From: an uncultured Methanosarcinales archaeon
GTDB taxonomy: Archaea > Nanobdellota > Nanobdellia > Woesearchaeales > GW2011-AR9
Reading direction: 5' to 3'
Length of the DNA: 52,217 nucleotides
Assembly: GCA_964368095.1 (NCBI GenBank)
Contig: CAYIZT010000002.1
Location: forward strand, 1 to 52,217
The position numbers were made by a program, and so were the translations under genes. Within the stretch, counting starts at the first letter, position 1, and the number at the start of each line of letters is the position of its first letter. The notes beneath the pieces were generated by a model that ran no database searches, was not told the origin of the DNA, and saw only the letters and a program-made list of their open reading frames with translations. Shown piece after piece: positions 12,280-51,588 of this stretch.

Positions 12280-13410
12280 TTACTCTTTGATCTTGGTCCT
12301 GTAAATTTCTAAGTATTTGTTGATGGCAGTATGCCAAGTAAATTTTTGCGAAGGCTTATAGCTAAACTTCCTCTTTGCGATCATATCTACTTTTTCTGCA
12401 AGGTCAAGAAGGTCTTTGCTCTTGAAAATCTGGTATTTTGCTGATACTACCTCCGGCAGGGAACCGGCATCGCTGACGATGACTGGCTTGCCTAACGAAC
12501 CTGCTTCTAAAGCATTGTACCCAAATCCTTCTGCCAGCGAAGGTACGATCACACAGTCGGCAGCTTTGATCATGGTCCCAAGCTGCGAGTACGGAAGTGA
12601 TGGTACAATTTTTACAATATCATCATGCTTATGCACCAAATCTCTAAGTTTCCGATAATTTTTTTTGTATTTCTCTTTGGTGCCGAGCATAAGAAGGATA
12701 CTGGCATTCGGAATTTTTTCTTTGATATAAGGAGCCGCTTCAATCAATTGTTCAAACCCTTTAGACGGGCCAGGCCTTCCCCATGAAAAACAGACAAATT
12801 TTTTATCGATACCAAGTTCTTTACGCAATTTTTGCGCTTCAGCTTTGCTGAAATGGCTGGGGTTCCAAAAATTATAATCAAACCCGTTGTAGACGGTGAT
12901 CGCTTTATCTTTTCCGATGTCATTATGCAGCAGATCATTTTTTGTAGCGTTGGAAACGCAGATATATCTGTCAAAAGACAGCAGATAGATCATCCTTTCC
13001 AATAAGTCATGCATGGCTGCTTTTAGTCCAGAGAAACCAGTAACTTCTTTCCATTTTCCAAGCCATATCTCATGTACTGTCAAGAAGACCGGTTTCTTGG
13101 ATAATCTGGCACCTAACCATGCCGGAGGCGCCCCGTTGAATGTAGTAGTCTGGATCACATCTGCTTTCTTGGCCAGCTGAAGAACTTTCGGGATGGAAAG
13201 GAATGAAAACAGATAACGGCTATTGAAGCAGGAAACGCGATGCACCTTCACGCCGTTGATCTCTTCAAATCTTTTTGTTTTGGGCAGTAAGGTTGTAACT
13301 ATGGCTACGCGATGCCCTTCTTTAACAAAACCTTCAGCTAAATTCTTGAACAGCACCTCTGCGCCGCCGTAATGAGGATAATAATTTTCACAGACGATAA
13401 GAATTTTCAT
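12280..13410 (-). CDS. glycosyltransferase family 4
   Basis: 376 aa. EGFGYNALEAGSLGKPVIVSDAGSLPEVV. Confidence 0.8.
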   Translation of the reverse strand: MKILIVCENYYPHYGGAEVLFKNLAEGFVKEGHRVAIVTTLLPKTKRFEEINGVKVHRVSCFNSRYLFSFLSIPKVLQLAKKADVIQTTTFNGAPPAWLGARLSKKPVFLTVHEIWLGKWKEVTGFSGLKAAMHDLLERMIYLLSFDRYICVSNATKNDLLHNDIGKDKAITVYNGFDYNFWNPSHFSKAEAQKLRKELGIDKKFVCFSWGRPGPSKGFEQLIEAAPYIKEKIPNASILLMLGTKEKYKKNYRKLRDLVHKHDDIVKIVPSLPYSQLGTMIKAADCVIVPSLAEGFGYNALEAGSLGKPVIVSDAGSLPEVVSAKYQIFKSKDLLDLAEKVDMIAKRKFSYKPSQKFTWHTAINKYLEIYRTKIKE

Positions 13411-23534: not shown

Positions 23535-24320
23535 TTATGTCATTAGCTCAGGAACATATGGTAAGCTCTGCTTAAACAAATTTTTTCTTCTAAATTCTAA
23601 GACAAAATGTACGTCTTTCTCTTTAAAGCCTTCTTTGACTAATTCTGCTGGTGTGAAACCGTTAAAATGATAGGCAAGAATTTGGTCTACATTACTTATT
23701 CCAATTCGGACCAACTCGGTGCGCATAATCTCGAAATCTTTTCCCTGCCAGGAATCAATTTTCGGCACTCTCTCTTGAATGTCTTTCGGTGCATCTAAGA
23801 ATGCTGCAAGTTCTTTTAATTGTGTTTTGAAAATTCCCCGTATTGGTTGAAAGCTTGCATCTAATCCAAAGATGGGGAATTCTCCTAGTTCGTATTCTGT
23901 GCGATTTAATGTCCCATACAATGGCGCTCCATTTTTATGTGAATAATCAAAAAGTATGCTTCTTTGTATTCTTGTAAGTAAATTAGTCATTTGGAGAGTA
24001 TTACCCTTTTCCGGATAAGTCTCTAACATAGGTCTAATATCCACTACGTGCCTATTTCTCTGTGGAAGTTCCAAAAGATCACAGATGCGATAAAATTCTT
24101 TACTGCTACGTTCTTGTTCATTATGTGGTAAATGAACCCCTATTACATTATCGCCGCCAATACTTCTACTAGCTAAATAGCCCGCAGTTGTTGAATCAAG
24201 ACCGGTTGAAAGTCCGATGACTAAACGTGAGAGTCCATCTTTTTCTAAAACTTTCTGCGTGAATTCAATTATTGATTTGGCGGTCAATCCTACATTATAT
24301 TCCAAGATTTTTGGCAACAT
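23535..24320 (-). CDS. nadE: NH3-dependent NAD+ synthetase
   Basis: 261 aa. PP-loop variant GLSTGLDSTT and NadE-like length and architecture. Confidence 0.7.
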   Translation of the reverse strand: MLPKILEYNVGLTAKSIIEFTQKVLEKDGLSRLVIGLSTGLDSTTAGYLASRSIGGDNVIGVHLPHNEQERSSKEFYRICDLLELPQRNRHVVDIRPMLETYPEKGNTLQMTNLLTRIQRSILFDYSHKNGAPLYGTLNRTEYELGEFPIFGLDASFQPIRGIFKTQLKELAAFLDAPKDIQERVPKIDSWQGKDFEIMRTELVRIGISNVDQILAYHFNGFTPAELVKEGFKEKDVHFVLEFRRKNLFKQSLPYVPELMT

Positions 24321-36001: not shown

Positions 36002-36088
36002 ATCTCTTAATCTCTATTTTTATTTTTCTTCTTATTTCTCTTCTTCTTATTTTCAAATAACCCCGTTGCGGCTCTGTAGAAAATCTCA

Positions 36089-36272
36089 AAAAAGTCGCCT
36101 TGGCCGTTCATGAAATGCGGAAACTACCTCATTTCAGAACTGAAAACTGATCGTTGTCAGTTTTCATGTTCAGCAAGTGCTTCTTAGTACATATTTTGTT
36201 AGGAAGCACCTACCAACTAGTGCAAGCAAAAGCAGTTCTTGCTTCACATCTTGGCCATGGCGGCGACTTTTT
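36089..36272 (+). ncRNA. candidate structured ncRNA, unclassified family, copy A
   Basis: An 11-bp closing helix AAAAAGUCGCC/GGCGACUUUUU, a 5' UUGGCCG and a 3' CACAUCUUGGCCAUGGCGG block shared with copies B and C. Internal hairpins are GAAAACUGA/UCAGUUUUC and GUGCUUCUUA/UAGGAAGCAC (the latter has a U-G pair only on the + strand). A T5 run lies at the 3' end. Confidence 0.5.
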
Positions 36273-36297
36273 CGACCAATCCCTCCGTTGCATAATC

Positions 36298-38535: not shown

Positions 38536-38596
38536 ACCTAACCCAAATCTATATAAAACCAAACTTCTTTGTCTTCTAAAAAGAGGATGAGCTTAT

Positions 38597-38725
38597 AGAA
38601 AATTCGCCTTGGCCGTGCCCTTCGCCTTTTTCCTGATCCAATACTGATGGAAAAAGTAACTTAATTTGTGGTTTGACAATAATAGTTTAGCTCGGGCACA
38701 TCTTGGCCATGGCGGCGAATTTTCT
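38597..38725 (+). ncRNA. candidate structured ncRNA, unclassified family, copy B
   Basis: A 12-bp closing helix AGAAAAUUCGCC/GGCGAAUUUUCU, UGGCC/GGCCA, GUGCCC/GGGCAC (38615-20/38694-99) and the hairpin CUUUUUCC/GGAAAAAG (38626-33/38649-56), whose loop carries CUGA...UGAUGG. The 19-nt block GAUGGAAAAAGUAACUUAA is identical to copy C. Confidence 0.55.
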
Positions 38726-38812
38726 TGCTGAACAAAAAAAGATGGTAAAGTTCAAAGTTAAGGACACAGAAAAATCAGGAATTTTCTTATCTTTCACATG
38801 GGGGGCTAAAAA

Positions 38813-40291
38813 ATGAAATTCCGTGTGAAAGACATGGATATAGCTACCGGCGGTACACTCATAGCTATTCTCAATGAAAAAGATGCGCATAAGTTGGATC
38901 TTCATTCTGCTGATCGTATATTGCTCAAGCATAACAGCAAAAGTGTTACCTGCATCTTGGATATTTCTGAAAGCAGCAAAGCGGTTTCTGAAGGAAGCAT
39001 AGGTTTGTTTGAAGAAGTGCTGGATCGCCTGAACGTCAAACAAGGCAGCTTGATTGAAGTTAAATTTACCGGAAAGCCGGAATCGGTGAAGCATATCCGT
39101 GATAAATTGCTAGGGAAGGAGCTTAATCCTACGGAATTGTATCACATCACAGATGATATCACTCACGACCGGCTGACTGATATCGAGAAGACTTATTTCG
39201 TGTCTGCCTCTTTTACTAATGGGCTAAGCGTCAAAGAAGTTATCGGGTTGACCAAAGCGATGGTGCATACCGGAAAGATGCTCAAGTTTCCAGGAATCAC
39301 CTTAGACAAGCATTGTATCGGCGGTGTTCCCGGAAACAGGACTACCATGATAGTCGTTCCAATTGTTGCGGCAGCAGGATATATTATTCCAAAAACAAGT
39401 TCACGAGCGATCACTTCTCCGGCAGGGACGGCGGATACTATGGAATGCTTAGCTAAAGTAGAGATGTCGGAAGCAAAAATTAAGCAAGTTGTAAAGAAGA
39501 CAGGAGCCTGCATAGTGCACGGCGGGTCTATCAACCTCGCACCGGCTGATGATAAGATCATAGAAGTGGAACATCCTTTGTCTATCGATGCTGAAGGGCA
39601 GTTGTTGGCATCGGTGATGGCCAAGAAAAAATCAGTAAGCGCCAATTATGTGCTGATCGATATTCCCATGGGCAAGAGCGTGAAAGCACGGAACATGAAA
39701 GAAGCTAATCATCTCAAGAAGATGTTTGAGCTGATAGGCAGAAAGCTTGGTATGCACGTCAGAGTAGTAATCACTGATGGATCTCATCCTATCGGCAACG
39801 GCATAGGTCCGCTCTTGGAAACAGAAGACGTTATGGCAGTATTGCGCAATGATCCGTCAGCGCCGCGAGACTTAAAAGAGAAATCATTGATGCTGGCTGG
39901 GCTGCTGTTAGAATTAGTCTGTGAATGCAAAAAAGGCGATGGATTAAGGAAAGCGACAGAAATCTTGGAAAGCGGCAAGGCGTTGGAGAAGATGAATCGG
40001 ATCATCGATGCACAGGGAAGGCAGAAAAAAACCGAATTAGGAAAACACCATTTTCCGGTGCATAGCAGCAAGTCAGGAAAGATAGTGGAAATAGATAATG
40101 ATATTATCGCAAAAGTCGCAAGGATCGCCGGCGCACCCGATGACAAAGGCGCGGGCATGTATCTTACAAAAAAAATAAATGACTCCGTCAAGAAAGGGGA
40201 TCTATTGTATACCGTGTATGCGGTAAGTGAGTTTAAACTCGGATTGGCGAAAGAATTTTTGCATAAGAATAATGGTTATATGGTGAGATGA
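38813..40291 (+). CDS. AMP phosphorylase (archaeal thymidine-phosphorylase-family enzyme with N-terminal extension)
   Basis: 492 aa. N-terminal MKFRVKDMDIATGG domain, then DKHCIGGVPGNRTT and SRAITSPAGTADTME motifs. GGGGG lies 8 nt upstream of the ATG. Confidence 0.8.
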   Translation: MKFRVKDMDIATGGTLIAILNEKDAHKLDLHSADRILLKHNSKSVTCILDISESSKAVSEGSIGLFEEVLDRLNVKQGSLIEVKFTGKPESVKHIRDKLLGKELNPTELYHITDDITHDRLTDIEKTYFVSASFTNGLSVKEVIGLTKAMVHTGKMLKFPGITLDKHCIGGVPGNRTTMIVVPIVAAAGYIIPKTSSRAITSPAGTADTMECLAKVEMSEAKIKQVVKKTGACIVHGGSINLAPADDKIIEVEHPLSIDAEGQLLASVMAKKKSVSANYVLIDIPMGKSVKARNMKEANHLKKMFELIGRKLGMHVRVVITDGSHPIGNGIGPLLETEDVMAVLRNDPSAPRDLKEKSLMLAGLLLELVCECKKGDGLRKATEILESGKALEKMNRIIDAQGRQKKTELGKHHFPVHSSKSGKIVEIDNDIIAKVARIAGAPDDKGAGMYLTKKINDSVKKGDLLYTVYAVSEFKLGLAKEFLHKNNGYMVR

Positions 40292-51290: not shown

Positions 51291-51339
51291 ACTAAGAAAG
51301 AAATATTTTTTGTATATAAATGTTTCTTTTTTTGGGCTT

Positions 51340-51478
51340 GTCCAGAATGGAGGAAAAAGCCACCCTGGCCGGCGCCATCGTCTTTTTCTCGTTGCATCTC
51401 GATGGAAAAAGTAACTTAACTTTGTCTTACGAATGGCGTAGCTCGGCACCATCTTGGCCAGCGGGTGGCTTTCTGGAC
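51340..51478 (+). ncRNA. candidate structured ncRNA, unclassified family, copy C
   Basis: Closing helices GUCCAG/CUGGAC and AAAGCCACCC/GGGUGGCUUU separated by a 10-nt 5' bulge. UGGCC/GGCCA, hairpin CUUUUUC/GAAAAAG (51382-88/51405-11), and the shared blocks GAUGGAAAAAGUAACUUAA, UAGCUCGG and AUCUUGGCCA. A T7 run lies at 51485-91. Confidence 0.55.
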
Positions 51479-51588
51479 AGAACCTTTTTTTGGATTTTTT
51501 AGGATAGTTTGCGGCGGCTTTTTACAGCCATTTTCTACGTCTTACGTTCAGCATAACCTTTATATACCATCAGACTATACTTTATGCG

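Follow-up and report, generated by a model that had tools for sequence, protein, structure and literature searches.

A MITE family with a conserved fold-back core, probably tied to an IS5-like insertion sequence of Nanoarchaeota and Woesearchaeota

Introduction

Short mobile elements without a transposase of their own are known from several prokaryotic lineages. Sulfolobus SM1–SM4 and the haloarchaeal MITEs are non-autonomous, lie in intergenic DNA of archaea and depend on the transposases of resident insertion sequences (ISs). The bcr1 repeats of the Bacillus cereus group are dispersed, about 150 bp long and flanked by target-site duplications (TSDs), and have a conserved predicted RNA fold with compensatory changes; their expression as RNA has been reported. 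Within the IS5 family, the IS903 and ISH1 groups generate target duplications of 8–9 bp and have GGC ends, and the Correia elements of Neisseria have TA as their TSD. MITEs are defined as elements of 50–800 bp that have no transposase, have terminal inverted repeats (TIRs) matching those of a resident IS and are flanked by short TSDs; the Neisseria Correia/NEMIS elements are listed as IS1106_IS5-like, and one woesearchaeal genome, with 105 MITEs per Mb, is among the most MITE-dense of archaea (PMC11602168).

Here we analyse three related elements (A, B and C) in a 52,217-nt stretch of archaeal DNA, referred to throughout as the window. We conclude, with a probability of roughly 0.85, that all three belong to one MITE family, which is tied to an IS5-like IS found in Nanoarchaeota/Woesearchaeota, and, with the same probability, that they are mobile DNA and do not constitute a new RNA gene family. 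We observed directly that the termini are shared, that TSDs are present, that close relatives have empty sites, that the copies are scattered among housekeeping genes unrelated to one another and that base pairing is strongly kept.

One parallel is with prokaryotic MITEs related to the IS5 family, such as Correia/NEMIS, which are alike in size, in the lack of a transposase, in IS-matched TIRs and a short TSD, in their intergenic and often promoter-proximal position and in folding as long hairpins. The present family differs in that it occurs in a DPANN archaeon, has no sequence similarity to them, has TSDs of 6–10 bp, has an interior unrelated to the IS with a junction motif that is more conserved than the TIRs, and shows extensive compensatory turnover of its helices. 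It resembles the Sulfolobus and haloarchaeal MITEs in being non-autonomous, intergenic and, apparently, reliant on a resident IS. The bcr1 repeats are similar in size, TSD and covarying predicted fold; however, they are bacterial and unrelated in sequence. The presumed mobiliser, an IS5-like IS, is comparable to the IS903 and ISH1 groups (~0.9 kb, a single DDE_Tnp_1 ORF, GGC... ends, 17–18-bp TIRs and a 9-bp TSD). As an analogy of mechanism only, the attC sites of integrons also vary freely in sequence and keep the fold of a single-stranded hairpin in which one strand has extrahelical bases; attC is bacterial, whereas the present family has neither an integrase nor the R/L box consensus and is not a member, and a DDE transposase uses double-stranded ends.

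Three elements with a common architecture

The three elements lie on the + strand, each between ORFs, among archaeal housekeeping genes (RadA/B-like, aS2, CofD/YvcK and AMP phosphorylase); named homologues of the window CofD are from Nanoarchaeota/Woesearchaeota. They have in common an outer helix (P1), a 5' YUGGCCG motif and a 3' CAUCUUGGCCA(UG)GCGG motif, and each contains one of the only three occurrences of CATCTTGGCCA in the 52-kb window. The architecture described in the earlier note is present as it was drawn: the closing helices (GUCGCC/GGCGAC, UUCGCC/GGCGAA and GCCACCC/GGGUGGC) differ in sequence and keep their complementarity, UGGCC can pair with GGCCA in A, B and C, and copy A has two additional hairpins, both of which we confirmed. 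The elements were also correctly placed, but their bounds had been drawn too narrowly; the units in Table 1 were delimited by TSDs and empty sites.

Table 1. Features of the three window copies and complete units in related sequences. Coordinates without a prefix are window positions; CM, covariance model.
Feature	Location	Strand	Observations
Copy A, 215-bp MITE, expanded subtype common to L131	36070–36284	+	CM 53 bits; RNA fold z −7.8
Copy A left TSD, CCGTTGC	36063–36069	.	7-mer repeated at 36285–36291; single in L144/L146 and L177
Copy A left TIR, GGCTCTGTAGAAAATCTC	36070–36087	+	17/17 identity to the IS left end in L150 and L153
Copy A 5' junction motif, TTGGCCG (P2 5' strand)	36100–36106	+	Invariant in alignment of relatives
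Copy A 3' junction motif, CATCTTGGCCATGGCGG (AUCUU bulge, P2 3' strand, UGGC bulge)	36247–36263	+	
Copy A right TSD, CCGTTGC	36285–36291	.	Matches left TSD
Copy B left TSD, AAAAAGAG	38578–38585	.	Uninterrupted in L142 and L143; element absent in L162 and L177
Copy B, 148-bp MITE, decayed TIRs	38586–38733	+	CM 139 bits; empty sites in relatives
Copy B right TSD, AAAAAAAG	38734–38741	.	7/8 match to left TSD
Copy C left direct repeat, CTTTTTTTGG	51326–51335	.	Identical 10-mer at 51484–51493
Copy C, 148-bp MITE, diverged subfamily	51336–51483	+	CM 118 bits; L133 copy
Copy C right direct repeat, CTTTTTTTGG	51484–51493	.	
Complete TSD-TIR-core-TIR-TSD unit (L160a)	L160 6953–7103		TSD TCAACAATAG twice, 10 bp
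Complete TSD-TIR-core-TIR-TSD unit	L136/L139		TSD TTCTTGAGG twice, 9 bp
Complete TSD-TIR-core-TIR-TSD unit	L134		TSD ATACAG twice, 6 bp

Relatives and sub-families

Scanning metagenome contigs for the exact pattern yielded eight true homologues (L130, L131, L133, L134, L135 = L073, L136, L139 and L141) and four further matches that are chance coding sequence. Homologues are present at the Hainich H51/H52 sites. The same kind of scan gave mostly chance matches in GC-rich genomes among genome contigs, where L073 was the only true one, and chance matches only among viral contigs, mostly coding for 'MAKM' protein starts. A covariance model trained on an alignment of eight B-type copies recovers A and L131, both of which lie outside the training set, together with a C-type copy in L133 and more distant copies in L147 and L160 (two in the latter). 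With filters off, the model finds no window copy beyond A, B and C; weak matches on both strands at 23819–23891 (11.9 and 8.1 bits) suggest an unrelated palindromic hairpin. Element translations, searched as proteins for mis-called ORFs, had no match.

A core group (L134, L136, L133B, L160a and L141) is 71–85% identical in pairwise comparisons across different genomes, and copies B and C are 64–74% identical to it. Copy A and L131 are 73% identical, and there are several outlier copies besides. Copy C and its counterpart in L133 (1117–1282) have common diverged ends (TGTCCAGAA; GCTTGTCCAGAA / TTCTGGACAGAAC in copy C), with one two-base CC/GG insertion in both arms. In other genomes the copies neighbour genes for IMPDH, tRNA-splicing endonuclease/aIF5B, RFC, iPGM, ABC1 kinase and a tRNA; no synteny is conserved among copies, and the flanks are unrelated housekeeping genes.

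Terminal repeats and a probable partner insertion sequence

Just outside the span first assigned to the elements, several homologues have a 17–18-nt terminal sequence, GGCTYTGTAGAAARTCTC, that recurs inverted at the far end; an IS5-like IS of ~0.9 kb has identical ends. The copy at L141 772–1670 is 899 bp long, is bounded by inverted GGCTCTGTAGAAAGTC / GGCTTAGTAGAAAGTC, holds a DDE_Tnp_1 transposase and lies 18 nt from a MITE copy. Across L141 and L149–L158 the TIRs of the IS are GGCTCTGTAGAAARTCT / GGYTTAGTAGAAARTCT; independent copies among L149–L158 have the left end GGCTCTGTAGAAAATCTTA and the right end GGYTTAGTAGAAARTCT (both ends confirmed in L141, L149–L154 and L158; right end only in the part of L157 covered), and the copy in L153 has a 9-bp target duplication. 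The transposase is a single DDE_Tnp_1 ORF of 265–270 aa (Pfam DDE_Tnp_1, 5e-16). Its best NCBIfam match is the IS5 family model NF033579, at 127–133 bits against a cut-off of 140, and the partner IS therefore represents a distant or unclassified IS5-like lineage. With few exceptions, the 439 homologues of the transposase (E ≤ 1e-10) lie on contigs of ~1 kb, as expected because multicopy repeats break assemblies; the partner IS is abundant in the same Nanoarchaeota/Woesearchaeota populations. A tblastn search with the transposase gave no match in the window.

Aligned to the IS by blastn, the small elements match in the terminal 17 nt only (100% identity for copy A and L131), and their interiors are unrelated to it. 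Units range from 148 to 215 bp, and the copies have no conserved reading frame in common. L134, L136/L139, L133B and L160a have a TIR at either end; TIRs are poor or unrecognisable in copy B, L130, L135, L147 and L160b. The window copies are unequal in this respect. Copy A has the left TIR only, a motif also found at the ends of L131, L133, L134, L136, L141 and L160, and its right TIR is degenerate, yet its TSD is perfect; C has a diverged pair of 9–13 nt, and the TIRs of B are degenerate. With TIRs decayed or diverged, B and C have probably lost their mobility, and A keeps one intact TIR.

Target-site duplications and empty sites

TSDs of 6–10 bp flank the copies. Those in the window measure 7 bp for A, 8 bp for B (7/8 matching) and 8–10 bp for C, for which the boundary between TSD and TIR is ambiguous by 1–2 nt. 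Syntenic loci for the A and B sites were located through homologues of CofD that are 73–93% identical to the window protein, and closely related genomes among them (CofD 87–93% identical) have empty, uninterrupted sites at the exact positions of A and B. Eight related lineages (L142, L143, L144–146, L147/148, L159, L160/161, L162–166 and L177–179) have no element at the A site, and no syntenic relative that we fetched has an element in the S2–CofD spacer. Where the window duplicates CCGTTGC around A, L144/L146 and L177 read through a single ...CGTT(G/C)C.... The B site is empty in four relatives (L142, L143, L162 and L177), and at both sites the flanks align across the junction; in L142 and L143, AAAAAGAG runs uninterrupted into ATGGT(A/T)AA.

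The S2–CofD spacer varies in other ways. Relatives have an ORF of 161–182 aa without a Pfam match (L142 9431–9949, L143 9404–9952, L162 9466–9951 and L177 7375–7890), which is 276 aa in L159, is absent from the window (36002–36062) and L160, and survives as a 3' remnant only in L144/L146. The spacer is a hotspot of gene gain and loss.

The earlier note argued that covariation marks an RNA, given that repeats recognised by a transposase would stay identical between copies, and named identical termini with TSDs as the sign of a mobile element. The covariation itself holds up (see below); such termini and duplications are both present, so that the inference of an RNA gene rather than transposon repeats fails. 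Chromosomal small non-coding RNA genes with incidental IS-like termini, as proposed there, are a very improbable reading, largely refuted by the empty sites beside neighbour proteins of 87–93% identity and by the TSD-TIR-core-TIR-TSD units, and disfavoured by the lack of synteny, internal TATA and strand asymmetry. In its favour are the covariation of the helices, the GC-rich character of the elements within AT-rich spacers and the T-runs that follow P1.

Insertions upstream of AMP phosphorylase

Copy B is inserted between a TATA box (about 38549) and the start of a small upstream ORF (uORF) and AMP phosphorylase, and must therefore be transcribed as part of the 5' leader. L160 has a different family member (L160b, 12590–12735; 6438–6580 in L161) at the exact insertion point of B. 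The two members are ~54% identical, their flanks are about 90% identical, and in both the T-run is shortened to 4. This shared site could have been hit twice independently, or an old single insertion could since have been converted from other copies.

The uORF itself (38742–38816) has 24 codons (MVKFKVKDTEKSGIFLSFTWGAKK, then a stop) and ends in a stop that overlaps the AMP phosphorylase ATG at 38813. Its N terminus mimics that of AMP phosphorylase (MKFRVKD). It is kept in L142 and L160, and its start recurs in L143; L177 and L162, in which AMP phosphorylase starts with MVKFR or with TTG, lack it. The uORF may encode a leader peptide coupled to the enzyme in translation, or it may be a duplicated start.

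A conserved fold without strand asymmetry

The predicted RNA folds of A, B and C are more stable than those of dinucleotide shuffles (z = −7.8, −4.2 and −4.3, respectively). The minus strands fold with comparable quality (z = −5.3 and −4.4), and the equality of the two strands holds with RNA or DNA parameters. The consensus fold of the eight B-type copies (MAFFT/RNAalifold) has 32 pairs, arranged as P1, P2, P3, a hairpin P4 and a 2-bp stem, with compensatory changes in 16 of the 32. Over 14 copies, including those from related metagenomes, 93.3% of cells are paired, compared with 74.5% in shuffles and at most 55% in slid-partner controls, and 25/32 pairs have changed on both sides; none of 500 shuffles reached the observed measures. 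The fold is thus truly conserved. P2 and the motifs that flank it (5' YTGGCCG; 3' CATCTTGGCCA(TG)GCGG) hardly vary, and the unpaired AUCUU, UGGC, UAACUU and CUUACGAA are invariant while the helices turn over. This inner junction is the most conserved part of the element, above the TIRs, and has no counterpart in the IS.

Among 433 paired cells, 391 are Watson–Crick, 13 are G·U, 9 are A·C and 20 are other mismatches. G·U is not clearly commoner than A·C, and neither strand is marked as RNA. Equal folding of the strands and the lack of a clear wobble signature fit a fold, or a homogenising process, at the level of DNA; RNA is also compatible with them.

The earlier note could assign the elements to no RNA family, and Rfam 15 gave no match for the whole window at gathering thresholds, and noise or nothing for A, B and C in E-value mode. 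No TATA-like motif (TTTAWAW) lies inside any copy on either strand. A kink-turn or L7Ae-binding RNA (pull-downs with L7Ae had been suggested) does not fit on inspection: there is no unpaired G/A opposite the AUCUU bulge, no GA/AG step beside either bulge and no 3-nt bulge adjoined by tandem sheared G·A pairs. ARAGORN reported no tRNA or tmRNA; it also missed an archaeal tRNA with an intron at L073/L135 2369–2468, so its count of zero for the window is not proof of absence. By reading of the sequences, the elements fit neither a split, permuted or intron-bearing tRNA nor 5S rRNA, SRP RNA, RNase P, an H/ACA or C/D sRNA or a bulge–helix–bulge motif: they have no T-loop and no boxes, and their bulges are confined to one strand. 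A coding remnant on the minus strand (MAKMVPS...) was rejected because stops differ among copies and conservation is out of frame. The conserved single-stranded stretch as an antisense to the transposase mRNA has an 11-nt match only (E about 0.1), which is missing from other IS copies. Restriction sites as cargo (GGCC, TGGCCA and CCATGG) were rejected, as the window shows no avoidance of them. CTAG, by comparison, occurs there at about half the expected frequency (58 observed compared with 108 expected under a maximal-order Markov model).

Proposed mechanism and its difficulties

A complete unit measures ~150 bp (215 bp in the A subtype) and has, listed inwards, an 8–10-bp TSD, a 17–18-bp TIR (GGCTYTGTAGAAARTCTC) and the A-rich/T-rich P1. 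Inside P1, the invariant junction forms the 5-bp P2 with AUCUU and UGGC bulges on one strand, followed by helix P3 and the internal hairpin P4. The most likely agent of mobility is the IS5-like DDE transposase (270 aa): it would bind the TIRs and mobilise the element in trans, as we infer from the matching ends, and movement would be by cut-and-paste, duplicating the target. The fold-back core may persist because only copies that keep it go on spreading or being tolerated. For example, the two ends could be joined, or a factor bound, by a hairpin that forms while the DNA is single-stranded or, possibly, by one in a read-through transcript.

Several observations count against the MITE reading: conservation is stronger in the inner motif, which has no equivalent in the IS, than in the TIRs, and TIRs are poor in some copies and degenerate at the right end of A. 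The many double substitutions that maintain pairing are not predicted by plain neutral decay of a selfish element. At all seven independent sites between tandem genes, the element runs in the direction of the genes (two-sided binomial P about 0.016, scored over the window and the L130–L160 copies, a small sample), a bias not expected from simple DDE cut-and-paste. A further six copies occupy divergent promoter spacers, and convergent spacers have none. The MITE reading does not account for the conservation of the inner motif above the TIRs, the co-orientation or the presence of two members at one site.

These difficulties leave some room for a MITE whose core functions as an RNA module and is dispersed through transposition, a reading that we consider unlikely. 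Read-through or promoter-proximal transcripts would fold as P1–P4, and the bulges would bind a host protein or serve as a terminator, a stabiliser or a 5'-UTR element; selection on the RNA would keep both fold and orientation. The compensatory changes, the invariance of unpaired motifs amid helix turnover, the orientation bias, the obligatory place of copy B in a 5' leader and the shortened T-run of copy B and L160b all accord with such a module. However, the strands fold equally and carry no strand signal, the element has no promoter of its own, no Rfam relative and no kink-turn, close relatives have the same genes without it, and the orientation sample is small. The stronger proposition, in which a MITE serves DPANN archaea as the vehicle by which a conserved RNA hairpin, either protein-binding or regulatory, is transposed to positions upstream of genes, is in our view quite unlikely. 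If true, it would explain the invariant bulges, the compensatory helix turnover and the strict co-orientation, and would mean that archaea with reduced genomes have a cis-regulatory or small RNA that is mobile.

Covariation could also be a by-product at the DNA level without a selected function, produced by template switching in the quasi-palindrome or by gene conversion between arms or dispersed copies; we judge this distinctly improbable. Changes run almost entirely from one Watson–Crick pair to another with few G·U intermediates, the fold is symmetric between strands, and the low identity of copy B and L160b within well-conserved flanks suggests conversion between copies. Such correction does not account for the orientation bias or for the invariance of specific bulges and single-stranded stretches against variable paired positions, and arms of 5–12 bp placed ~80 nt apart are short substrates for it.

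Implications

A mobile fold-back element can show covariation too, and strong covariation alone is no proof of an RNA gene. For annotation of Nanoarchaeota/Woesearchaeota genomes, the GC-rich hairpin islands and their spurious ORFs should be masked as MITEs rather than called as RNA genes. Insertions land in promoter regions, and copy B parts a TATA box from its gene. For the genome biology of DPANN archaea, the MITE reading links a very abundant IS5-like IS to its probable non-autonomous partner.
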